From a virus, in the IMG/VR virus record IMGVR_UViG_3300011261_000048, positions 1 to 64,000 of that record: 64,000 nt of DNA; one strand, written 5' to 3'. The first letter of the stretch is position 1, and the number at the start of each line of letters is the position of its first letter. Positions 1 to 47,711 of the stretch are shown here, in pieces. The notes under the pieces were generated by a model that saw only the letters and a list, made by a program, of their open reading frames with translations, was not told the DNA's origin and searched no databases. The translations under genes were made by a program, and so were the position numbers.

Positions 1-3000
1 AATTTACCATTAGCATCAGTTAAGCCTAGCTGTTCTAGTTTATTTTGAGTCATTTCTACACCATCTACCTCTACTGTTTCAGTAGTATGTAGTGTAGGGA
101 ATAAGAAAGACTTGAAAGCATTACCTTCAATTCTATCCATATTTTCTCCAAAAGTACCTTTTCCTGGAGCTACTTGATAGTAGTGGTAATATAGAATTTG
201 CTTATCATCTGCTAATGGAGGAATAGCCTCTGAAGTCTCTGTAGCCTCTTGACCATAGATAGTTTTTCTAGCTACTTCCATTCTATGTAACTCATCAGCT
301 AAGTATCCTGTAAGGATAGATAATGTTTCTGGAGATGAGTTAGTAAATTCTACTTTATTAGTAAGTGGGTTAAGTGATATACCAGATCTTCTTAATGCTG
401 GGCCATAGAAATAAGACTGTTGTCCTTTATCTGCCTCAGCAAGTCCAATATATCTACCACTTAGTTGTTTATTAACTTGGTCAATATAAGTATCAGAGAA
501 TTTTAAGTTAGATGCTTTATCTCCTTTATCTCCTTTATCTTCTTGTTTATAGTTACCATATAAATCTAGTGTAAAAGCATCTCTGTTTTTAGCACCTTGT
601 TCTGCATGAAGTAGTTCAGCTAACCATAGTGAATTTCTCCCCCATAAAGAAGACTGTAAATCTTGTAAGTGAGTAAGTTCACCTGCTTTAAATTCATTTA
701 CAGTTTTAGAGAAACTGTTATTATCTTGATAAGCCCAAATTTGATTACCATCAGGCCCTAAGAAAGAACTTTCTCCTCCTAGTTTTCTGAAGTCACCTTC
801 TACTCTAGCTAGCTCATTTTTAAAGAAAGTATCCTCATCTAATAACATATTAGTATCATTAGTTAAAGGAGTACCCACTTTTTTTACTATACCTCTAGTA
901 GCTTTATCTAACTTATTAGTAATAAGTTTGATAGCTTTGGCCTGGTGGAAAGTAGGGAATCTAGGATCAACAGGTAAACCTTGATTGTACATTAGCTTTG
1001 TAATAGCTTTATCTGCCATAGTTACTCCTAATTGAGTAAGCACATTACCAAAAGCAGTAGCTAACTCAGGAGTCATTGCTTTTTTACCCATTGCAGTAAT
1101 TAACTCTGCATTAAGTTTAGTTTTAACTGCTATTAATTTATCTATTTCTTCAGCACTGTAAACTGGTGCACCATCAACAAGAGTAGTATACTTGTTACTA
1201 AACTCTGCAGCCCATGACCCTCTAATAGTATATTCTTTAGAATTAATATCTGATGTACCTATCTTAGATATAGTAGCTTTAGGTTCTCCTGCAATAATAT
1301 GGTTAATGTAGTTACCTTTAGTTCTAGAAAAAGAGAAATGAAACTGAGTCTTAATTTGGTCAGGCATAGCTTCTAGCTTATTCAATAAGAAAGTAAATTC
1401 AGGTTTGTAACCTGATTCAGCTTTCAATGCATCTACCATTACTTGATAACCATCTTGAACTTGACCTTCTTTCATAGTAGCAGTTTTACCTGCAAGTAAG
1501 TTTTCCAAAGCATTATATGTAACACTAAAGTCATTAAACTTAGGTAAACCTAATAATGTATCAGTATTATATATAGCTTCTCCATCTTTATACCCTTTAA
1601 TATCAGGAGTCATAGAGATTAGGAACTTAATAGTTTCTGTAGCAGATTCTTTTCCTGATACTTCATAAGAAGACTGTAAGAAACTAAGCATACCTTCATC
1701 AGTTTCATCATAGTCCTCTTTATTATCTATCTTGGTTACTTCTTTAAGGCCAAATTGGTCTTTAATGTAATCTTTAACATTTTTAATCCAGAAAGGTTGT
1801 ATTTGTAAGTCATCAGTAAATACTCCTTCTAATCTACTCATCTGCTCTGCAGCAGCAGTATCGTCAGGGTTCTCTTCTAATAACGCTTCTGCTTTATTAT
1901 ATTGGTTTGATAAACCTTCTACAATGTTATTAGCATTAAATTTATCAAGAGTATCTAAAGAAGTCACATCTTTAAATGCTAAGTAAGCCATCTGCTTAGT
2001 AGTTTCTCTTACTTCTTGAGCTGTATATAACTTATGTCTAGCAGAAAATGCTGTACTTCTAGTAATGTTAGGTTTCTTAGAAGCATATTTACCTCTACTA
2101 ATATCAAAGAATAACTTTCTAGCTTTTACTTTATCAGAAAATACACCAGAAATCCAATCCATTAGTTTTTGGAATAGTCCTTTAATACCTGTAGAATACT
2201 TATAATGTTTATTAGCATACTTAGGATTAGCCATATATGACATAAAATCATCAGCTATTTGCTCTTCAAAATAAATCTTAATAGCTTCTACTCTACCCAC
2301 ACCAACATCTTCCATAGTAGATGTGATATCTCTTTCTGTAGGATAAGCATACTCATTCTCTGCTTCAGTAATAAGTCTATCTCTTTGCTCCTCATTAAGT
2401 AGAGTTCTAAATACCGCATGGAAAGCTTCATGGTAAGCAGTACCTGCTTCTGCCATTTCACTAACTGTAATCATACCATCTTGAAATAAACCAGCTATAA
2501 CTTTACCTTGAGAAAGTAAACCAATGTAATCAGGAGTTAACTTAGTAGCTATCTCTTTAGGAAGTATACTATTAATATGAGCTATCTCTGCTTCATGCCC
2601 TTTCTTATTAGGGGTATGTGATACAGAAGCACCTGGAGTATAAGTTTTAAATGCACTTTTACCTGAATTCTTTTTACCTAAAGCACTTAATCCTGCCTTC
2701 TTTTTAGTAGAAGTAGTAGTTTCAGTTCCTGGTAAATTCTCTACTTGACTAAATAAATCTTGTTGAGCATTATCTTTTTGTGTAGTTACATTGTCTGTTA
2801 CTTCTAATAGTTGATTATCAAAGTGTTCATTAATTTCTTGTATAGTAGGTACATTACCTTCTAATAAATCTATAAATTGACTAAAGTTAAAAGAAGTTTT
2901 ACTGTCATTGACATTTATAACTTGTCCTCTGCCTATTAGACCTACTACAACGCCTGGAGCAATAACTTTAAAGTATAACGTACTTGTAGCAAAATAATCA

Positions 3001-6000
3001 TTGTCTGCAGTTCTTAAATCTTTTTCTGTTTTTCTAAACACCTGTCCTACAGGTAAATCAAGTATAACTTTACGTACAGACTGTTTCCCTAAACTTTTAC
3101 TTATTGGTAACTCTGCTAAATCCTGCCTACGTTCCCTATTATTAAGTGCTTCCTTTCTAGCTATTTCTATACTTTCTTTATTTACTAGATTAGGCTTTTC
3201 TATTTTAGATAACGGTGTAGACGGCTTACTTAGTGCTTCCTTATTAGCTTGTCTTTTAGCTTTCTCTGGGTTAATTACCCCTTTTTCTAAAATATCTAAA
3301 GCCTCTTCAGGTTTAAGTTTACTAATGTCTTGTTTAGTATAACCTAAATCAGCCAACCCTTGCTTAGTAGCAGTAGTAATAAAGAAAGGTACTCCTTTAT
3401 TCTCAGTGTTTTTAACACTAGTATCTAAATCACTTTTAGCTTTAGTAGTTGCTTCTTCTGTAACTTCTTCTGCTGAAGAAGTAGTTTCACCTAAAGCAGC
3501 TATCTCAGCATCGTATTTAGCGTTGATTTCCTCTACAATAGCAGATCTAGCCTCTTCTTCACTATTGTATTTTTTTATCTTAGTTGAAAAATGATACCCT
3601 TTTTTCGTTTTACCTTCTGCAGTGTATTCCTGACTATAAAAACTGAATCCTGGGGAAAGTTGTGTACCTTTTATTTTTGTAATTCTATCTAGTACAGTTC
3701 TTTTCCTTTCTTCAATACTTTCTACAGTATTAGTTTCTGTAGTATCAACAGCAGCTGTTTCAGAAGTAGTAGTATTTGCACTATAAACAGGAACAGGTTG
3801 AATAAATAAGTTACCCTCTGGAGTAGCCTTAGCATTAGTATATAAAACACCATTGTTATCTAAGTACTCTTTATACTTTTTATCTCCTAGTTTTTTAACG
3901 TCTACTTGTCTTCTTCTATTTTTAGCTAAGTGGTTAATAAATAAGTCTTTACCTTGAGCTGACTTTAAACCATCTATATCTACCTTTTTTGCACCAGTAC
4001 CATATACTAAAGTAGCAGGTCTTTTTTGTCCTTTTAAATTTTGAGCAGGAGTAATGAATAACCTAGATTCTCCTTTAGACTCTGTAACAGCTTCACCATT
4101 AAATACTAAATGGTTTAATAACTCAGAATGAGTCATAGTGTTAAGAGGAAGATATTCAGCTAACCCATTAACAACAGCATCAGGATGATTCTTTATTTTA
4201 TTAATAAGTTCATCTGATAATCCTTTCTTATAGTTACCTGGATCTCCTAGTACTTGTACATATATATCATATATAATGCTAGCTTCTGACATACTAAGGT
4301 TATTAACATGTGCCCTTAAAGGAAATGATTCTCCATTAGCCTTTTTAACTACTGTATAAACAGCTCCTGGAGTAGCAGAAGCTAAGTGCAATAAATCAGA
4401 GTTCTGTGTACCATCTACATTAAAGTAGCCATCTGTAGAATCACCATATAGATAAGTAATGTCTTCTGCAGTTTTACCTAATTCCTTGGATATAGAATTC
4501 TTTACAAATTTACCATTACTGTCTTTAGCAGTGTTTAGTGAACCACCAGTTTTATACTCTAATTTTGTAGAAACTTTTTCCCCTTTGAAATGTGCTTCTA
4601 TTACTTCTCTTTTAGTTCTTTCTACTTCTTTTACTTGAGCTTCAGCAACTTTAGGGTCTTTAGTAGAATCAAAGAAAGTAGTATCATGTAAACTTACACT
4701 TAAGGCTATACCATTATGTACTAGATTACCACCATTCCTTTTTAATGAACCTTTAACAGGAAGTCTACCTACTAATTCTTCTGGGATAGTACCACTTTCA
4801 ACAGCAGTTTTCATTGCTACATATTCTTCTAATCCTGCAGCAGCTTGAGCATCTATAAGCTCTGTGTTAATACTGAACTCAATACTTACACCTTCTATAC
4901 TATTATCTCTTTCTAGGAAACTAGTTAATGCTTTATTTTCTGGAGTATTAAACTCCTCAGCCATATGTCTAGCATTATTTACAGATAACCATGCAAGAGG
5001 AGTAGTTTGATTAGTAGTGTTTAAAGTCTCAGTTTCATCTTCTGATACTATAGTTCCTGTTTCATTACTAGGAGTTTCCACTGTAACATGTGACACAGCA
5101 GCGTTATTAGCAGCTTGGTGGTCAGTATTAGCATCTCTACCTAAATCTACTTTACCTTCAGATTTTCTTTTCTTAAAGTCAGCTAATGCATCTTGTACTT
5201 CTTTAGGGAACTTGTTTATAGATGTTTCCTTTCTAGATATAGCTCCTTGTAGTTGATTTAACTGTTCATCAGTCATCTTATTTTTAGTAGCTCCTTGAAG
5301 CACTTGTTCTTCTTCTACTTTACTTGCACCATCATTTAACTCTTCTTTTTTAAGAGCATGCTTTTCTTCAGTATCTTTAGCCTTTTCTGTTTTTTGAGAT
5401 GCTTTAATGGAAGCTAGTCTCTTCTCCTCCATTTCTTTTTGCCCTTTTGCAGAAGTCATATAGTTTATATCATTGATATAAGCATCTTGATAGTGCTGAG
5501 TCCATTGTAATTCAGAAATAGCTTTAGATAACTCTTCAGCATATGCGCCTTTAACAGAGTTAGTTGCAATTTTATCAGGGCTAGTTAAAAACTTCTCTGA
5601 TACTTCTTTAATTTTAGCTTTACTATTATCTACTATTTGTTGATGTACAGCTATAGATGTTTCCAATGCTGCTTTGTCTTCTGTAGGCATCGTAACATTA
5701 GCTATTTTCCACTTAGCTGATCTAATAAACCTTTCTCTAGATAGTACTTTTAAATTCTCTTCAAAAGATATTTTACCATTATCAGATAAATTATTAATAC
5801 TAGGGATTTTATCAGTTAACTCTTGTATAGTATTACCTAACTCTATTGCTTTAGTTGACATTTCATCAACCATATATTGACTATAAGTAATAACTGGTAC
5901 AGAGGCACTATTATATTTAGCACTATTCTTTTGATACAGTGCACCTACTTTCTTAGCAGCCGCTATATATGTATCTAAATCTTTCTGAAAACCTTCTTCA

Positions 6001-7616
6001 AAACCATGTTTCTCCATTTCCTCTGGAGTAGCATTTTTTAATTCTTCTAAATTCTCAATAGCTAAGTCTAAGTTACCTACTTGAGAAGCATTCATACCAA
6101 TATCAAAAGCAATTCTAGCCTTAGCTGTATGTACTGCTTTATCATCTTCAGCTTGTACTGCCTGATTTAAAGCTTGTAAGTTAGCTGATATGTTTTTATT
6201 TCTATTTAGATGCTCTTCTATTCTAGAAGTTACTTCACTCTTATATTTAGTTACTCCAGTTTTATTACTTATTGTGGAGTTTACTTTATTTTTAATTGCT
6301 TGTGCTTTTTCTGTTTTATTTAAATCACCAGCAAACTGCATAGCCATACCACCAAACCCTCCAAAGAAAGCTGATGTCCATAACTCAGAATCCTTAGAGT
6401 ATGATTCCATTCTATCTGCAAGTGATGTCTCATTAGGGTCAATTATACCTGCAGTAACTCCTGCTAAATGTTTACCTTCCTCACCTATAACAAATTGGTA
6501 AGCTTCTTCAAAACCTTCTGATGCAAATTGCTTAGCATAATCTTTCCCTGCTACTGCTAATGCTTTATATGGGGATTTCCCTACAGCTCTAGCATGTCTC
6601 ATAGAACTAATAGCCTTAGATGGAGCCATACCCCTACCCAGCATAATGTATTGACCTATATCTTGTACTGCCATAGCCCAGTTCATTCTATATGAAAAAG
6701 ACGCACCTGCAGCTGCAGCATTTTTTGCATCTTTATCTGATAGACCTTGGTCTAAAGCATTTTGATATGCCTCCTTATAAACTCCACTAGCCTCCATAGA
6801 AGATTCTATGTGCCTAGAGATAACCCCTTTATGTACAGCATCAGCTACTTTTTTACCTGAATTAGCTAATCTAGGAGATTTATTAGCAATTTTACTTGCC
6901 ATCTTTGCTATATCTTTAGCTTTAGCCCCATACTTACCTACTTTAGCTCCCGTAGCTAATAGTTTACCGCCTTTACCAACCATACTAACCCCTTTAGCCC
7001 AACCAGCTACAGGAATCATAATACTAAGTGCAGAAGCAATAGATACACCATTAGAAAACCACCATGCACTACTGTCCATAGCAAATCTACCTTTATCATC
7101 TGGATGTAAGTGTATAGGTGCAGCAGCATTGATATCTTCTTTCATACCTGCAGCCCAGTCAGAAACTGCGTTACTCCAGTCATCTTCTGCTCCTTTAGTA
7201 ATAAAAGATTCCCAATCCATTAGATACCCAGCACCTTCTATAGCACCAAAAACTATTTCAGAACTTACTTGAGCTCCAAATGCTAAAGCCTCACCAAAGA
7301 AACCTTGTTCCTCAGATTTTTGAACAGCTTCTGCTCTCATCTCTGCTTGAACAATATCATTGTATTTACCTACAAGATATTTCTCTCCTTTACTTAATTG
7401 AAAATCATCTCCTAATTTATTTCTAAATTTACCATAATCTAAATTACTACCTATACCAGTAGCTACTGTAGGCTTAATTTTAGGTTGCTCTGCAACTATA
7501 TCAAAGGCTTTATCTCTACCTCTAGTATTCTCACTGGCTGGTTTAGTTCCTTCATAACTAGGTGTAGGTGTAGTGTTAGATGGTAAACCATCTTTATCTA
7601 TTGTGTTATCTTCCAT
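1..7616 (-). CDS. Giant virion (ejected cargo) protein with zincin-like metallopeptidase motif, probably the crAss-like virion RNA polymerase-associated polyprotein; runs off the window at the 3' end (>2,538 aa)
   Basis: ATG at 7616 (MEDNTIDKDGLPSN...). The same frame reads open wherever I checked, including the window start (...QLGLTDANGK). HEAFH at 2432-2418 is followed by YFEEQIADDF. TATATTTG promoter at 7642-7635. Position follows the muzzle and cargo genes as in crAss-like phages. Missing from the ORF track because no stop lies in the window. Confidence 0.85.
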   Translation of the reverse strand, partial: MEDNTIDKDGLPSNTTPTPSYEGTKPASENTRGRDKAFDIVAEQPKIKPTVATGIGSNLDYGKFRNKLGDDFQLSKGEKYLVGKYNDIVQAEMRAEAVQKSEEQGFFGEALAFGAQVSSEIVFGAIEGAGYLMDWESFITKGAEDDWSNAVSDWAAGMKEDINAAAPIHLHPDDKGRFAMDSSAWWFSNGVSIASALSIMIPVAGWAKGVSMVGKGGKLLATGAKVGKYGAKAKDIAKMASKIANKSPRLANSGKKVADAVHKGVISRHIESSMEASGVYKEAYQNALDQGLSDKDAKNAAAAGASFSYRMNWAMAVQDIGQYIMLGRGMAPSKAISSMRHARAVGKSPYKALAVAGKDYAKQFASEGFEEAYQFVIGEEGKHLAGVTAGIIDPNETSLADRMESYSKDSELWTSAFFGGFGGMAMQFAGDLNKTEKAQAIKNKVNSTISNKTGVTKYKSEVTSRIEEHLNRNKNISANLQALNQAVQAEDDKAVHTAKARIAFDIGMNASQVGNLDLAIENLEELKNATPEEMEKHGFEEGFQKDLDTYIAAAKKVGALYQKNSAKYNSASVPVITYSQYMVDEMSTKAIELGNTIQELTDKIPSINNLSDNGKISFEENLKVLSRERFIRSAKWKIANVTMPTEDKAALETSIAVHQQIVDNSKAKIKEVSEKFLTSPDKIATNSVKGAYAEELSKAISELQWTQHYQDAYINDINYMTSAKGQKEMEEKRLASIKASQKTEKAKDTEEKHALKKEELNDGASKVEEEQVLQGATKNKMTDEQLNQLQGAISRKETSINKFPKEVQDALADFKKRKSEGKVDLGRDANTDHQAANNAAVSHVTVETPSNETGTIVSEDETETLNTTNQTTPLAWLSVNNARHMAEEFNTPENKALTSFLERDNSIEGVSIEFSINTELIDAQAAAGLEEYVAMKTAVESGTIPEELVGRLPVKGSLKRNGGNLVHNGIALSVSLHDTTFFDSTKDPKVAEAQVKEVERTKREVIEAHFKGEKVSTKLEYKTGGSLNTAKDSNGKFVKNSISKELGKTAEDITYLYGDSTDGYFNVDGTQNSDLLHLASATPGAVYTVVKKANGESFPLRAHVNNLSMSEASIIYDIYVQVLGDPGNYKKGLSDELINKIKNHPDAVVNGLAEYLPLNTMTHSELLNHLVFNGEAVTESKGESRLFITPAQNLKGQKRPATLVYGTGAKKVDIDGLKSAQGKDLFINHLAKNRRRQVDVKKLGDKKYKEYLDNNGVLYTNAKATPEGNLFIQPVPVYSANTTTSETAAVDTTETNTVESIEERKRTVLDRITKIKGTQLSPGFSFYSQEYTAEGKTKKGYHFSTKIKKYNSEEEARSAIVEEINAKYDAEIAALGETTSSAEEVTEEATTKAKSDLDTSVKNTENKGVPFFITTATKQGLADLGYTKQDISKLKPEEALDILEKGVINPEKAKRQANKEALSKPSTPLSKIEKPNLVNKESIEIARKEALNNRERRQDLAELPISKSLGKQSVRKVILDLPVGQVFRKTEKDLRTADNDYFATSTLYFKVIAPGVVVGLIGRGQVINVNDSKTSFNFSQFIDLLEGNVPTIQEINEHFDNQLLEVTDNVTTQKDNAQQDLFSQVENLPGTETTTSTKKKAGLSALGKKNSGKSAFKTYTPGASVSHTPNKKGHEAEIAHINSILPKEIATKLTPDYIGLLSQGKVIAGLFQDGMITVSEMAEAGTAYHEAFHAVFRTLLNEEQRDRLITEAENEYAYPTERDITSTMEDVGVGRVEAIKIYFEEQIADDFMSYMANPKYANKHYKYSTGIKGLFQKLMDWISGVFSDKVKARKLFFDISRGKYASKKPNITRSTAFSARHKLYTAQEVRETTKQMAYLAFKDVTSLDTLDKFNANNIVEGLSNQYNKAEALLEENPDDTAAAEQMSRLEGVFTDDLQIQPFWIKNVKDYIKDQFGLKEVTKIDNKEDYDETDEGMLSFLQSSYEVSGKESATETIKFLISMTPDIKGYKDGEAIYNTDTLLGLPKFNDFSVTYNALENLLAGKTATMKEGQVQDGYQVMVDALKAESGYKPEFTFLLNKLEAMPDQIKTQFHFSFSRTKGNYINHIIAGEPKATISKIGTSDINSKEYTIRGSWAAEFSNKYTTLVDGAPVYSAEEIDKLIAVKTKLNAELITAMGKKAMTPELATAFGNVLTQLGVTMADKAITKLMYNQGLPVDPRFPTFHQAKAIKLITNKLDKATRGIVKKVGTPLTNDTNMLLDEDTFFKNELARVEGDFRKLGGESSFLGPDGNQIWAYQDNNSFSKTVNEFKAGELTHLQDLQSSLWGRNSLWLAELLHAEQGAKNRDAFTLDLYGNYKQEDKGDKGDKASNLKFSDTYIDQVNKQLSGRYIGLAEADKGQQSYFYGPALRRSGISLNPLTNKVEFTNSSPETLSILTGYLADELHRMEVARKTIYGQEATETSEAIPPLADDKQILYYHYYQVAPGKGTFGENMDRIEGNAFKSFLFPTLHTTETVEVDGVEMTQNKLEQLGLTDANGK

Positions 7617-41740: not shown

Positions 41741-42028
41741 CTATTTATCTTCTATAATCTCTGATACGGGACTCATCTTACTAAGCATCTCTTCAGGTAT
41801 ATCCTTTTGGCCACCTTCAATAGATACTAGTTTTGTTTCTCTCTCTTTATTAATTTCTCTTAAGATTGCTATGTTCTGATTATCCATGAACTCCATTAGA
41901 GCTAACATAGTCATTCTTCCCTCAGCATTCTCACATAGGGCAATGACTCTTAAGCCATCTTTACTTACCCTTGTCATCATGTTATTAAGTACATTAGTTG
42001 CACTGTTTACTTCTCTCTCTTTACTCAT
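41741..42028 (-). CDS. Hypothetical protein
   Basis: ORF track; overlaps the GroEL stop. Confidence 0.55.
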   Translation of the reverse strand: MSKEREVNSATNVLNNMMTRVSKDGLRVIALCENAEGRMTMLALMEFMDNQNIAILREINKERETKLVSIEGGQKDIPEEMLSKMSPVSEIIEDK

Positions 42029-43547
42029 TTACTTCCTTTTTAATTATTACACAGTTAGTAGTAAATAACATGTTTGCTGCACTAACAGCATTTGTTATAG
42101 TTGCCTTAATTACTAAAGCAGGATCTACTATTGTACTCTCTATTAACTCTGCTTTTAGTATAGCAGCTTCACCTTTAGTTAACTCTCCATTCTCACATAG
42201 TGTTACCCATAACTTTCTCATACTATCAAATACAATTGGGGCAGCTACGTTACCTTTAAACTTAGGCTCACACTTATAGATTAGGTTCTCATAAGCCATA
42301 CATCCACCTTTAACAACTCCTTGTTCTAGTGCACTCTGTACTGCTCTAATAGTATCATCTAGTCTATCTTTCTTCTCTTTAACTTCAGCCTCATTAGCTC
42401 CTCCTACGTAGATAATAGCTGCACCTGAAGTAAGTAGACCTAACCTCTTCTTGAAGTTCTTAGCTAATCCTTCCTTATCGTCCTCTATCTTATCTCTGTA
42501 GTATTGAACTCTTTCAGCAATAGCTTCAGGTACACCTTTCCTACCAATAATAGTAGTTTCCTTTAAAGTAATGTTAACTGCATCAGATAAACCTAATGCT
42601 CCTACAGTAATACTCTTAACGTCCCATCCTTTCTTCCTAGATATAAAAGCTGCTCCAGTAGCAATAGCTATATCTTCTAGTGCCTCTGTTCTAGCATCAG
42701 CAATAAAAGGAGCTCTAATAATCTCTATTAAAGAACCATTAGTCTCGTTATTATAAGCAACTATACTAGCAGCTTGTTCAGTAATGTCCTCACATATAAC
42801 AAGTAAAGGTCCACCACAACTTTCCTGTAACTTTACTATCTCTACAGCATCTGTTTGAGTAGTGATCTTCAAGTCAGTAACTAGTATCTTACACTCTAGG
42901 TGCTTAACACTAGTTCTACCTCCTACTAAAGCAGGAACAATGTGGCTTCTATCTAACTTAATACCTTCAGTAGCATCTAAACTAGTCTCGTAGTTTCTTG
43001 AATCAAATACAGACACAATACCTTCTACCCCTATTACTTTAAATGCATCACTTACTAATCCAGCAATATAACTATCACCATTACAAGCTACCATAGCAAC
43101 ATCTAAAACATCGTCTATAGTAATGTGTTTAGTATTAAGTTCTAGCTCTTCTAGTAGTACCTTTACTATCTCATCAATTGAGTTCTTTAATTGAGTAGTG
43201 TTTAAAGACTTATTACTATTAAGTACGTTAAATCCTTCCTCTACAATATACCTAGTAAGTATAGTAGTTGAAGTAGTACCATCTCCAGCAATCTCAGCAG
43301 TTTTTGCTGCAGCCTGTCTAATGATCTGGGCTGCAACATTTTCTACTGGGTCTACAAGGTTAATACTGTTAGCAACAGTTACACCATCTTTTGTAATATG
43401 AGCATCGTTAAAGATTTTAGACAACGCTACATTTCTTCCAAAAGGTCCAAAGGTTGTACTTACTGCATCAAAGATAGTTTGACTACCTTTTAATAATCTT
43501 TCTTGTACTTCCTTCCCTTTAATTACCTCACAAGTCTCTCTTACCAT
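42021..43547 (-). CDS. groEL: Phage chaperonin GroEL-like
   Basis: TFGPFGRNV, TKDGVTVA, AGDGTTS, VGGANEAEVKEKKDRLDD, GVVKGG, DPALV. Confidence 0.93.
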   Translation of the reverse strand: MVRETCEVIKGKEVQERLLKGSQTIFDAVSTTFGPFGRNVALSKIFNDAHITKDGVTVANSINLVDPVENVAAQIIRQAAAKTAEIAGDGTTSTTILTRYIVEEGFNVLNSNKSLNTTQLKNSIDEIVKVLLEELELNTKHITIDDVLDVAMVACNGDSYIAGLVSDAFKVIGVEGIVSVFDSRNYETSLDATEGIKLDRSHIVPALVGGRTSVKHLECKILVTDLKITTQTDAVEIVKLQESCGGPLLVICEDITEQAASIVAYNNETNGSLIEIIRAPFIADARTEALEDIAIATGAAFISRKKGWDVKSITVGALGLSDAVNITLKETTIIGRKGVPEAIAERVQYYRDKIEDDKEGLAKNFKKRLGLLTSGAAIIYVGGANEAEVKEKKDRLDDTIRAVQSALEQGVVKGGCMAYENLIYKCEPKFKGNVAAPIVFDSMRKLWVTLCENGELTKGEAAILKAELIESTIVDPALVIKATITNAVSAANMLFTTNCVIIKKEVNE

Positions 43548-45337: not shown

Positions 45338-45502
45338 TTAATGGGTTTCTTCATCTATTACCATAGAATATCTGTTTAGTTTACCATATCTGGCCCACCA
45401 AGTAACCTTAGAACTAAAACCTAACTGCAACCCAGCTAGGGTAAACCTATGTTTATACCAAGTACCTCCTCTCCATTTCCTATACCAGCTAAATCTCTTC
45501 AT
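45338..45502 (-). CDS. Small basic aromatic protein (54 aa, MKRFSWYRKWRGGTWY...)
   Basis: Read manually; ATG 45502, TAA 45340-45338, followed by a hairpin. Confidence 0.5.
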   Translation of the reverse strand: MKRFSWYRKWRGGTWYKHRFTLAGLQLGFSSKVTWWARYGKLNRYSMVIDEETH

Positions 45503-45740
45503 ATCTTTTTAATTTAAATGCCTTATCTCCCCGTGCATTTTTGATTTCACCACCACAAACTGCAGAGCTGTGTCTTGCAGAACAGGAACCGTATACCTCA
45601 TTTTCCATGATTTTTAACTAACATCTAAAGATGTACTACCTGATCCAAATACTGTCCATCTTTTTTAGGTAGTATAAGTAAACCCTGTTCTTATGGGAAG
45701 AGTGCTCTTATTACTAAGAGACTATAATTATTATAATTTA

Positions 45741-46175
45741 CTATCCTGTTATATTAGGATTATGTGTAAAATTCAAAATAGGTCTGTACTTCTTTATGTA
45801 TTTAGCTTCTTTCTTCTTTCTTTCTGTAGCATTACCTTCAAACTTCTCATATTTAAAAGAAGTAAATTCTTTTTCAGTAGATTTAAAATGTTGAGATAAT
45901 CTACTAAATATACATATGGATTCTCCTACATAAACAACTTCATTATCTCTAAATAAAAAATATATACCTGATATACCAAAAAAATCACTTACTGGAAAAG
46001 CACCGTTACTGAAATTACTATTTCTTTTTTCTCTAAGCTCCTTTTGTATTTCAATATTTGATTTACCTGCTTGCTTATTTCGTAACTTAGTAGCTTCTTC
46101 ATCTAGAAGTAACTCATACTTCCTCATTTCCTCTCTACCTTTACCTTTAAATCCCATGATGCAAATATAAGCCAA
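45741..46175 (-). CDS. GIY-YIG nuclease
   Basis: SGIYFL...VVYVGES...RLSQH...EAKYI..YRP.LN; true start probably internal because TATATTTG occurs at 46169-46162 and 46197-46190. Confidence 0.8.
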   Translation of the reverse strand: MAYICIMGFKGKGREEMRKYELLLDEEATKLRNKQAGKSNIEIQKELREKRNSNFSNGAFPVSDFFGISGIYFLFRDNEVVYVGESICIFSRLSQHFKSTEKEFTSFKYEKFEGNATERKKKEAKYIKKYRPILNFTHNPNITG

Positions 46176-46216
46176 ATAAATTATATATGCAAATATAAGC
46201 TATATAGCTTATAAAG

Positions 46217-46287
46217 TTTTGGGGAGAAGACTTGAACTCCTATTACCTGGACCAAAACCAGGTGTCCTGCCATTAGACGACCCCAAA
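46217..46287 (-). tRNA. tRNA-Gln (UUG)
   Basis: Acceptor TTTGGGG/CCCCAAA; anticodon arm CCTGG-TT[TTG]GT-CCAGG; T arm AGGAG-TTCAAGT-CTTCT. Confidence 0.9.
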
Positions 46288-46292
46288 ATATG

Positions 46293-46364
46293 TGGAGATA
46301 ACAAGATTTGAACTTGTGTCCCTAGTTCTTCAGACTAGTGCTAGGCCAACTCAGCTATATCTCC
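46293..46364 (-). tRNA. tRNA-Phe (GAA)
   Basis: Acceptor GGAGATA/TATCTCC; anticodon arm CTAGT-CT[GAA]GA-ACTAG; T arm ACAAG-TTCAAAT-CTTGT. Confidence 0.9.
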
Positions 46365-46369
46365 ATATG

Positions 46370-46440
46370 TCTATAAGTCAAGATTCGAACTTGAGTACTC
46401 CTACGTCCAAGGTAGGCATGAAACCTGGCTTCGCTTATAG
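46370..46440 (-). tRNA. tRNA-Pro (UGG), atypical short D arm
   Basis: Acceptor CTATAAG/CTTATAG; anticodon arm CCTAC-CT[TGG]AC-GTAGG; T arm TCAAG-TTCGAAT-CTTGA. Confidence 0.85.
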
Positions 46441-46444
46441 ATAT

Positions 46445-46477
46445 AAAAAAAGCCCCTTTAAATTAATAAAGGAGCTT
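46445..46477 (-). terminator. Intrinsic terminator (attenuator 3:4 stem) immediately upstream of the tRNA cluster
   Basis: AAGCTCCTTTA-TTAATT-TAAAGGGGCTT followed by a T-tract ending 4 nt before tRNA-Pro. Confidence 0.85.
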
Positions 46478-46512
46478 AAAATCACGTAACAAAATGTTAA
46501 AACATCAACTTA

Positions 46513-46587
46513 TTAGGTAACAGTAAATCCTTTCCAGTAGTGAAACTGAAAAGGTAGAGGCATTGTATTTACTGTTAATGAGTTCAT
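46513..46587 (-). CDS. Putative leader peptide MNSLTVNTMPLPFQFHYWKGFTVT (24 aa)
   Basis: ATG 46587, TAA 46515-46513; lies between a promoter and a terminator; its codons form the attenuator stems. Confidence 0.7.
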   Translation of the reverse strand: MNSLTVNTMPLPFQFHYWKGFTVT

Positions 46588-47048
46588 TATTTTTTCTTTG
46601 TGATGCAAATATACATAATTAATATGTACCACCAAACTTTTTTGAAGAAATCTTTAAATTTATTTACTCTTCTGCCCTTATCTAATAGTAACCACTTATA
46701 AAAAGTATGAAAAGAGAAGTTCCTAACTACTAAAACTAGTATTGCTATATACCAAGTTGTTACTAATCCTATAGCTACGGCCCATAAAGTTATCTTAAGT
46801 CTCTTAAATAAATGCCAAGCATCAGTAAAAGAAACAGGCTTAGTAATCTTAAGTACTAAAATAGACCACTTAACTCTACCTGAAGCAGGATCCCTATCCA
46901 CATATTTAGATAACCATGACACATCTGGGTTCCAGAAGTAGGGGTTTGATCTTTTAAATGTACTTACAGAGAAGTGATGACTCAAAGTATCCATTATAGC
47001 ATCACATATTCCTGCTAATGCTATACATATTATTACTGCTACTATCAT
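46587..47048 (-). CDS. Membrane protein
   Basis: AGICDAIMDTL...FWNP.VSW..KY...FTDAWHLFK with hydrophobic helices. Confidence 0.65.
   Translation of the reverse strand: MIVAVIICIALAGICDAIMDTLSHHFSVSTFKRSNPYFWNPDVSWLSKYVDRDPASGRVKWSILVLKITKPVSFTDAWHLFKRLKITLWAVAIGLVTTWYIAILVLVVRNFSFHTFYKWLLLDKGRRVNKFKDFFKKVWWYILIMYICITKKK
46606..46613 (-). promoter_or_regulatory. Bacteroidota -7 element TATATTTG for the leader peptide / tRNA operon
   Basis: TAnnTTTG 19 nt upstream of the leader ATG. Confidence 0.7.
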
Positions 47049-47317
47049 TCTCCTAAAGATTTAAGTCTTTTCCAATGCTTAATTACCTGGTAAGCAATTA
47101 GAGATAGTATACTTGTACTACCTGCTAGTAATATCCACTTCCAATGCATTTCATGGTAGGCAAATAAGTCAGGTGCTACTCCTATAAACAGGGTAATACC
47201 AATAAACAGGATAAGTAAACCTCCATTCTCTAACTGTAGTAGATGGTCCTTAAAACTGTAGCCATCCCATATACCTCCTTTAACAGGGGATAAAAATTCC
47301 TTTAATTGCTTTTTCAT
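47045..47317 (-). CDS. Membrane protein (2 TM)
   Basis: Track ORF; start moved to ATG 47317 because TACCTTTG promoter lies at 47349-47342. Confidence 0.6.
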   Translation of the reverse strand: MKKQLKEFLSPVKGGIWDGYSFKDHLLQLENGGLLILFIGITLFIGVAPDLFAYHEMHWKWILLAGSTSILSLIAYQVIKHWKRLKSLGE

Positions 47318-47349
47318 ATTTTCTTTTAATGTTAATACTGACAAAGGTA

Positions 47350-47711
47350 ATAAAACCTAGGGAGTGAGTATAATTTTTGGGAAATTTTTAAAATTTTTTT
47401 TTGGATTTGGGGATTTCTAAAAAATTTTTTTGGATTTGTAAGTGAGGAGTAACTATTAAAATTGCACCCCTTCACAATCTTGCGGGTAATACCCCCACCA
47501 AAGTCGTAAAAGTGACTTAGTAATTTACAAACTGTTCTTACAGTATTACTAAAGTTGCAATGATGCATAGCATATAGTGCTCAGAAAGTGTGATACATAT
47601 ACACATCTACACTATGCTCTTGTTGACCCTTTACTTTCTTGGTGTTCTACTGTTGTTGGGAAAATCCTGATGACACATACAATTTATATACATAATTAAA
47701 CACGTAACATT
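47350..47711. other. Divergent non-coding strand-switch region (candidate genome end / origin / early promoter region)
   Basis: Gene orientation flips. T-tract repeats (TTTTTTTGGATTTG twice), a C-rich patch and hairpins such as TTAGTAAT...ATTACTAA 47517-47552. Confidence 0.55.

Follow-up and report, generated by a model that had tools for sequence, protein, structure and literature searches.

In the trpL, pheL and hisL leaders, whose layout returns in the locus described here, the regulatory codons of a short translated 5' leader open reading frame (ORF) are found in strand 1 of the 1:2 hairpin, and a 2:3 antiterminator excludes the 3:4 terminator; stalling of the ribosome for lack of charged transfer RNA (tRNA) gives read-through. 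To our knowledge, all described leader-peptide attenuators control amino-acid biosynthesis or synthetase genes. The tRNA clusters of phages (e.g., of T4 or T5-like phages) are commonly regarded as a supplement to, or a substitute for, the tRNAs of the infected host; their regulation is largely unknown, and the genes are usually seen as passive codon-usage supplements or as spares against tRNA-cleaving defences. The present locus lies in the first 64,000 nucleotides (nt), in the following called the window, of the 93.5-kilobase (kb) IMG/VR virus record IMGVR_UViG_3300011261_000048 (≈ 33% guanine plus cytosine). On its minus strand follow, one after the other, a promoter, a 24-codon ORF with an internal hairpin, an intrinsic terminator, and the genes for a tRNA-Pro(UGG)-like RNA, tRNA-Phe and tRNA-Gln, such that three tRNA genes, and not biosynthesis or synthetase genes, stand behind the putative attenuator. 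Comparative and folding analyses make it probable that a ribosome-mediated leader-peptide transcription attenuator heads this operon, the only tRNA operon of the phage. An earlier reading made from the letters alone (the sequence-only reading) had proposed that the terminator is gated by a mini-ORF whose codons are those of the tRNAs behind it; its coordinates all check on the minus strand, and the proposal was supported by all comparative and folding tests run, which were computational throughout.

For comparison, IMG/VR was searched with the 153-amino-acid protein encoded directly upstream of the leader, which gave two relatives, L002 (70% identity; encountered again, with an identical sequence, as L129 and L132) and L003 (46%). 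A further phage, L007, was found through the 5' half of tRNA-Phe, and the leaders of the window, L002 and L007 are the three focal leaders of the analysis. Coordinates refer to the window and its minus strand unless a contig is named.

The leader ORF comprises 24 codons plus TAA (MNSLTVNTMPLPFQFHYWKGFTVT, 46513-46587, with the ATG at 46587 and the TAA at 46515-46513), and its ATG overlaps the stop codon of the upstream 153-amino-acid ORF within the letters TAATG. Codons 12-14 read CCT TTT CAG (46554-46546) and spell Pro-Phe-Gln, just as had been claimed. Stretches of six residues with at least five Pro, Phe or Gln, all three being present, occur at 4 places among 118,088 windows when the entire phage is read in six frames, and the chance of a PLPFQF-like stretch in a given 24-codon ORF is about 1e-3. 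The minimum-energy fold of the leader (-40.9 kcal/mol, z = -4.87, with 0 of 200 shuffles as stable) reproduces the predicted two-tier 1:2 hairpin with the Pro-Phe-Gln codons on segment 1. Its outer helix joins ACAGUAAAU (46575-46567) to AUUUACUGU (46528-46520), and its inner helix, the 5' strand of which carries codons P12-F13-Q14, joins CCUUUUCAGU (46554-46545) to ACUGGAAAGG (46538-46529). The 5' arms of this hairpin constitute segment 1 (46545-46575) and the 3' arms segment 2 (46520-46538), of which positions 46533-46524 are at the same time the antiterminator strand. A middle hairpin (46481-46521) is enclosed by the antiterminator helix whenever the latter forms.

The intrinsic terminator (segments 3 and 4, 46445-46477) is built from an 11-base-pair stem at 46477-46450, a 6-nt loop and seven T, and the tRNA-Pro-like gene starts 4 nt past this T run. 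Since the gap is too short for a promoter, every tRNA transcript must read through the terminator; a separate tRNA promoter downstream of it, which would have spoken against attenuation, finds no room. The genes behind it are those for the non-canonical tRNA-Pro(UGG)-like RNA (46370-46440), tRNA-Phe(GAA) (46292-46364; 66.9 bits with Rfam) and tRNA-Gln(UUG) (46216-46287; 56 bits), and ARAGORN calls no further tRNA gene across the whole genome. Of the Pro-Phe-Gln trio named in the sequence-only reading, the Phe and Gln members are thus called by both ARAGORN and Rfam, whereas the Pro member is missed by ARAGORN at default settings, appears as tRNA-Pro(tgg) at a relaxed threshold only, and scores 33.2 bits with the Rfam tRNA model against a gathering score of 29. 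It has a UGG anticodon, a D stem of 3-4 base pairs with a short loop, and the pair C1-G72 together with A73, which are identity marks of bacterial tRNA-Pro. Compared with L002, its cloverleaf displays three compensatory pair changes and no broken pair, from which it can be concluded to be a maintained tRNA-shaped RNA, the charging of which with proline is putative.

The leader is preceded by the -7 promoter element TATATTTG (46606-46613), of the Bacteroidota type TAnnTTTG, and, 19 nt further upstream, by the -33 element TTTG (46633-46636). The promoter that had been claimed at 46613-46606 is hereby confirmed as TTTG-N19-TATATTTG, in agreement with the TTTG/TAnnTTTG consensus at -33/-7 of the Bacteroidota primary sigma factor (PMC6847099, PMC7366714); the spacing between the two elements is 19 nt in the window, 19 nt in L002 and 20 nt in L007. 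Transcripts of F. johnsoniae begin 4-5 nt past the -7 element (PMC6847099), an offset that places the predicted start near 46601 and leaves a 14-nt A-rich 5' untranslated region. The start region of the leader ORF has no Shine-Dalgarno sequence and has A at -3, -6 and -10 to -12, resembling in this respect the phage's own genes as well as the pattern in PMC6847099. Among the phage genes, a Shine-Dalgarno-like 4-mer occurs in just 5 of 80 and the A frequency at -10 to -13 amounts to 55-68%; the motif TAHHTTTG is located at most 70 nt upstream of 9 of the 80 ORFs, against 2.0 expected. The mini-ORF accordingly appears to have a credible start site, and, because the promoter and translation-start signals of the phage match that type, its host is probably a member of the Bacteroidota.

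In L002 the whole unit is kept, i.e., promoter, mini-ORF, fold, terminator, Pro-like gene, tRNA-Phe and tRNA-Gln. The mini-ORF (MKTLIANNLPQPFQFTNWRDLL) is found at the same place and overlaps the upstream stop as ATGA, and the leader adopts a like fold (z = -4.49), in which a different hairpin takes the place of the middle hairpin of the window. The outer helix ACAGUAAAU/AUUUACUGU has become AUAGCAAAU/AUUUGCUAU, which amounts to two compensatory double changes; the terminator differs by two compensatory and two one-sided changes and the inner helix by three one-sided changes, with no broken pair in either of them. The two leader peptides differ at about half of their positions, and their C-termini are unrelated. 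Their cores read P-L-P-F-Q-F in the window and P-Q-P-F-Q-F in L002, with two synonymous TTT-to-TTC changes, and the sole replacement within the core, of Leu by Gln in L002, yields a cognate amino acid; the motif P-x-P-F-Q-F-x-x-W is common to both. In L003 (4001-4780) the homologue of the 153-amino-acid protein is directly followed by a protein gene, with no leader, terminator or tRNAs in this region, and for this reason the promoter-leader-terminator-tRNA unit looks like a cassette that is gained or lost. A blastn search (distant mode) of GenBank phages gave no relative but only a 53-nt match to tRNA-Gln, a metagenome scan with the tRNA-Phe pattern returned only the L002 copies and unrelated large tRNA arrays, and a scan with the tRNA-Pro-like pattern returned just the contig of L002 itself.

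The alternative pairing postulated between segment 2 and the 5' arm of the terminator exists, namely as a duplex of AAAGGAUUUA (46533-46524) with UAAGCUCCUUU (46478-46468), the latter being the terminator 5' arm extended by one base. Its energy is -10.6 kcal/mol, a pairing equalled by 4% of the segments drawn at random from the genome. Folding of the leader with and without a ribosome, as recommended in the sequence-only reading, gave an antiterminator that depends on ribosome position in a co-transcriptional model, and a fold that does not depend on the ribosome at equilibrium. Since the terminator always wins at equilibrium, the switch must be kinetic, which is also the accepted view for trp attenuation; equilibrium folding therefore says little about a switch of this kind. 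In the co-transcriptional model, the RNA was cut before the terminator 3' arm, and folding was allowed only 3' of a 29-nt ribosome mask. For the window, the modelled antiterminator is full with the ribosomal aminoacyl (A) site on codons 9-14 and partial on codons 8 and 15; it is absent at earlier codons, where the inner hairpin holds, and at later ones, where segment 2 is covered. The stall-sensitive codons 9-15 (46543-46563) encode M P L P F Q F. The L002 leader likewise forms the antiterminator in the model at A-site codons 9-14; that of L007, modelled from codon 6 onward, forms it at all modelled positions through codon 14 and loses it from codon 15, so that its stall window is bounded on the 3' side only. 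Cognate codons make up 5 of the 7 positions inside codons 9-15 of the window leader vs 1 of the 16 outside (Fisher p = 0.003), and they are concentrated in the stall stretches of L002 (p = 0.002) and L007 (p = 0.01) as well. According to this model, a ribosome-dependent switch is plausible and correctly positioned.

The sequence-only reading had further called for a survey of phage tRNA clusters, and such a survey revealed that leader codons do co-vary with tRNA content. In L007, a TTTG-N20-TATCTTTG promoter is followed after 4 nt by a 23-codon ORF (MKNITHTSQFSNQFPKGSEDSIV) and then by a 13-base-pair terminator, behind which the tRNAs are arranged in the order Pro, a 180-nt spacer, Thr, His, Asn, Phe, Gln. 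The codon stretch NITHTSQFSNQFP of this leader precedes a larger tRNA set than in the window, and all six amino acids are found within 13 consecutive residues, the codons of which make up the 5' arm of a long hairpin (z = -3.98 for the fold). The L007 leader deviates from the order of its tRNAs; the identity in order noted for Pro-Phe-Gln in the sequence-only reading therefore holds for the window itself and does not extend to L007. Two tRNA-like genes of type II, called neither by Rfam nor by ARAGORN at default settings, are located in the spacer (9655-9466 of L007, minus strand). The first is a type-II tRNA-Ser(GCU) at relaxed threshold, and the second, read by eye, is a type-II, Ser(UGA)-like gene with the loop CUUGAAA (anticodon UGA) and G73. 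If both serine tRNAs are real, the leader codons TCA and AGT would be matched as well and 12 of the 13 residues would be cognate, which is suggestive only. The leader of L173 shares its ends with that of L007 (MKN...SIVV), carries the core QQQYQPQPYP, and is followed by a terminator and by Tyr, His, Pro and Gln tRNAs.

The cleanest within-genome co-variation of leader and tRNA block that we encountered is that of L181, a single 67-kb phage contig with three paralogous leaders (MRTI...; 5244-5125, 3819-3745 and 2323-2207, minus strand), each of which has a Bacteroidota-type promoter, a terminator and a tRNA block of its own. One of them (KHKHFSKSSKWF) stands before Lys, His, Phe and Trp tRNAs, another one with SSSRSSS before Arg and Ser tRNAs, and the third, in which seven Asn form the core, before two Asn tRNAs. 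Large tRNA blocks with long 'checklist' leaders in front of them are present in L112, L065, L071, L077, L057 and L061. Such units test up to 15-17 amino acids (L112, L065), and the L112 leader holds 15 of 15 cognate amino-acid types; a second leader of L112 (..DFTLRKEDSLLED..) precedes Glu/Asp/Met/Leu, and the L061 leader LRQLSLEQLIEE precedes Leu/Arg/Ile/Glu/Gln. A seeming counter-example, L101, with a 12-type leader ahead of only Thr-Gln-Pro, turned out to be an artefact of the 400-nt cluster gap, since beyond that gap the same block goes on to Lys, Val, Tyr, Asn, Ile, Ser, His, Arg, Arg, Trp and Phe.

The co-variation was put on a statistical footing with 120 phage contigs retrieved via the tRNA-Gln pattern, which gave 31 non-redundant units selected by rule. 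For each tRNA cluster, the strongest terminator at most 160 nt upstream was considered, and among the ATG-initiated ORFs of 12-60 codons whose end falls no more than 110 nt ahead of, or 20 nt past, the start of this terminator, the longest was chosen; this rule superseded a first crude survey of every tRNA cluster, with a whole-ORF binomial test and no terminator needed, in which the excess was weak. Among the 31 units, 163 of 175 cognate amino-acid types are present in the leaders, against 136 ± 4.4 by per-amino-acid permutation (z = 6.2), and 340 of 960 residues are cognate (282 ± 15.5 expected, z = 3.7). The excess in types persists without the three focal units (151/163, expected 127.5 ± 4.2, z = 5.6) and with one unit per leader family (141/153, expected 115.6 ± 4.3, z = 5.95). 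Decoys behave otherwise: reverse-strand open frames yield 120/175 types (expected 121.2 ± 4.6, z = -0.3) and the +1/+2 frames of the leader DNA 248/350 (expected 244.9 ± 6.6, z = 0.5). This frame dependence of the match between codons and tRNAs argues for decoding rather than for a mere effect of RNA sequence. Along the same lines, 36 of 60 Leu, Arg and Ser leader codons are readable by the anticodons present, vs 26.8 expected (z = 2.7). As the rule postdated the first sample, a second, independent one was drawn with an unrelated D-arm pattern, rule and code being left unchanged. Its 18 new units, mostly with a single tRNA and including the three L181 leaders as well as many obvious chance ORFs, contain 79 cognate residues out of 493 (55.1 ± 8.5 expected, p = 0.006; z = -1.7 in decoy frames). 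When all 49 units are pooled, cognate codons favour those positions at which a ribosome, once stalled, would leave the terminator 5' arm a pairing partner upstream (odds ratio 2.2, p = 9e-10).

The anatomy of the unit, its conservation with compensatory changes and the frame-specific co-variation of leader codons with tRNA content are matters of observation. We infer from them a translated leader, a kinetic competition between antiterminator and terminator, and a physiological trigger, which would act together as follows. As long as the leader is untranslated, or quickly translated to its stop, segment 2 (46538-46520) would be sequestered, either in the hairpin with segment 1 or beneath the ribosome; with segment 2 unavailable, the terminator would form and transcription would end at about 46445. 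If Pro-, Phe- or Gln-tRNA is scarce, the ribosome would linger with its A site on codons 9-15 and mask segment 1, and bases 46533-46524 would pair with the 5' arm of the terminator (46478-46468) while its 3' arm has yet to be transcribed. With the antiterminator formed, RNA polymerase would continue into tRNA-Pro, tRNA-Phe and tRNA-Gln, and the outcome would be a demand-driven, self-limiting supply of exactly those tRNAs whose codons are tested. The shortage may be brought about by phage codon demand, by host shut-off or by a tRNA-cleaving defence; the destruction of host tRNAs by anticodon nucleases, invoked in the sequence-only reading, is one of several conceivable triggers and purely a matter of conjecture. 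With somewhat less assurance than for the locus itself, we consider it likely on balance that Bacteroidota phages commonly gate their tRNA blocks with multivalent 'checklist' leaders, that transcription proceeds only on slow decoding of cognate codons, and that tRNA supply is thus a closed loop driven by demand, which would also turn on replacement tRNAs upon depletion or cleavage of those of the host. The window would then be a minimal example with three tRNAs.

Several points weigh against attenuation at this locus and have to be set beside the above. The support is wholly computational; the sequencing runs listed as containing the stretch are three DNA runs with small shares, and no RNA run is among them. 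In folding with ribosome masks, the terminator forms at equilibrium whatever the position of the ribosome, and the complementarity of the antiterminator is modest relative to random genome segments (p = 0.04 for the window, 0.11 for L002 and 0.04 for L007). The leader has one or two codons per amino acid and no run as in hisL or pheL, and for the focal leaders taken by themselves, the excess over the whole ORF is weak in a binomial test (p = 0.04-0.06). The tRNA-Pro-like RNA has a short D arm and carries A37 (U37 in L002) where the usual base is G37, and the leader Pro codons are CCU vs an anticodon UGG, such that their decoding requires U34 wobble. As to the class, the unit rule was written after the first sample had been inspected, and the measure 'types present' is not significant in the second sample (z = 0.3).

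Some of these points would suit an ordinary leaky terminator, which ends an upstream two-gene transcript while the tRNAs arise from constitutive partial read-through, the Pro-Phe-Gln mini-ORF being due to chance. The terminator is indeed located only about 110 nt past the 153-amino-acid ORF, equilibrium folding knows no ribosome dependence, the whole-ORF enrichment is weak on the focal leaders alone, and among the ORFs next to terminators, the surveys picked up many that are plainly noise. Chance, however, would have to supply a PLPFQF-like stretch (about 1 in 1,000 for a given 24-codon ORF), to retain ORF, start overlap and core in L002 while the remaining peptide drifts, to shift the leader codons together with the tRNA content in L007, L173 and L181, to produce class statistics that are frame-specific (z = 6.2 vs about 0 for the decoys), and to conserve a promoter just ahead of the ORF. 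This renders a leaky terminator an improbable explanation of the locus.

It is also unlikely that translation of the leader acts by another route, be it through Rho-dependent termination, the stability of the transcript, a coupling to the ORF upstream or a micropeptide with a function of its own. In favour of such a route count the modest antiterminator complementarity and the overlap of the ATG with the upstream stop, by which reinitiation is possible. Against it, a canonical U-run intrinsic terminator is conserved exactly where an attenuation switch needs it, each of the three focal leaders yields an antiterminator tied to ribosome position in the mask model, and cognate codons in the 49 units prefer pairing-permissive stall positions (odds ratio 2.2, p = 9e-10). 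A micropeptide might account for the P-x-P-F-Q-F-x-x-W motif conserved in the window and L002, but the peptide outside the cognate core is not conserved. Finally, a translation-independent structured leader, i.e., an RNA that regulates by binding a protein or a tRNA in the manner of PyrR sites or T-boxes, or that serves processing or stability, with the reading frame as a by-product of its helices, has in its favour the strong conserved fold with compensatory changes, a weak match to the PyrR site of Rfam (29.5 bits, E = 0.15) and the location of the Pro-Phe-Gln codons on a helix arm, where RNA constraint alone could conserve them, but is very unlikely given that the PyrR match is far under the gathering score of 54, that no T-box or other cis-regulatory Rfam family is found at E up to 10, that the match to tRNA identity is confined to the ATG-initiated frame, and that leaders of unrelated sequence and fold have only the codon-to-tRNA match in common.

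With regard to its surroundings, the tRNA unit is situated close to the head of a long minus-strand gene block, which begins at a strand switch near 47.4-47.7 kb. The upstream 153-amino-acid ORF (46587-47048), inside the 3' end of which the leader promoter is located, has no match in Pfam or PHROG and is unassigned in function. Directly after tRNA-Gln, two copies of TTATATTTGCAT (promoter-like -7 motifs, 46159-46197) are followed by a leaderless-looking ORF for a 138-amino-acid GIY-YIG endonuclease (45741-46157; Pfam PF01541, E = 8e-6); in L002 both TTATATTTGCAT motifs are kept, and the sequence behind them is different. The GIY-YIG ORF may be a homing-endonuclease insertion adjoining the tRNA cassette. 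Further along the same strand, the phage encodes a GroEL-type chaperonin of 508 amino acids (42021-43547; PHROG 5725, E = 4e-94; Pfam Cpn60_TCP1), a 73%-identical copy of which is carried by L004, a contig that ends short of the tRNA region. Positions 3-7616 are taken up by a very large open frame, at least 2,538 amino acids long, with an ATG at 7616 and its 3' end beyond the low-coordinate edge of the window. Another contig, L131, contains at about 630-754 (minus strand) a tRNA-Phe-like 5' half and a matching 3' half with acceptor and T arm, separated by some 50-60 extra bases; ARAGORN makes no call at this site, which may represent an interrupted or intron-bearing tRNA gene. Among the Rfam results, a hit to the PyrR binding site (RF00515; 29.5 bits vs 54, E = 0.15) was rejected, since only the generic hairpin-hairpin-terminator layout matches, and matches to SNORD and small RNA (sRNA) families below threshold were dismissed as chance.

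If attenuation of this kind takes place, the phage would gauge decoding speed codon by codon and respond with the matching tRNAs, and classical attenuation would reach from amino-acid supply to tRNA supply and from cellular operons to viruses. It would provide a testable handle on the timing of the phage's need for tRNAs, as well as a rule for annotation, in that the codon list of a leader predicts the tRNA block downstream and flags tRNA genes missed by the finders, such as the Pro-like gene in the window and the Ser-like genes in L007. Leaders of this type might also serve as compact sensors of tRNA availability for Bacteroidota.

A full-text literature search, including the nearest paper, found no leader-peptide or attenuator control ahead of tRNA genes; for B. 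thetaiotaomicron, the transcriptome disclosed short ORFs in long 5' untranslated regions that were described as 'reminiscent of leader peptides' (PMC7366714). Compared with trpL, pheL and hisL, phage tRNA genes would be controlled here instead of biosynthetic enzymes, with one or two codons per amino acid in place of runs, with an antiterminator that encloses an extra hairpin, and in a host, probably of the Bacteroidota, that does without Shine-Dalgarno sequences. Closest in style are thrL and ilvL (of ilvGMEDA) of the enterobacteria, where one leader likewise attends to several amino acids through interspersed codons; those leaders report the supply of amino acids to pathways making the same amino acids, whereas here the output consists of decoding tRNAs. 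The pheM leader of pheST is the nearest with respect to its target, as attenuation there likewise adjusts a component of translation upon slow decoding of its own codons, but it controls a cellular synthetase and uses tandem Phe codons for a single amino acid. T-box riboswitches, too, take a shortage of charged tRNA as input and give leader antitermination as output; they bind uncharged tRNA without translation, via a specifier codon and the T-box sequence, whereas the signal here is frame-dependent, and a search of 45500-47500 with the T-box covariance model (RF00230), up to E = 10, returned nothing. The tRNA clusters of phages, in turn, are handled in the searched literature as promoter-driven genes, as opposed to the terminator-gated leader layout of the window. 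What sets the proposed attenuator apart is the output, tRNA genes, and its occurrence in a phage, while the layout and the logic are those of known leader-peptide attenuation.

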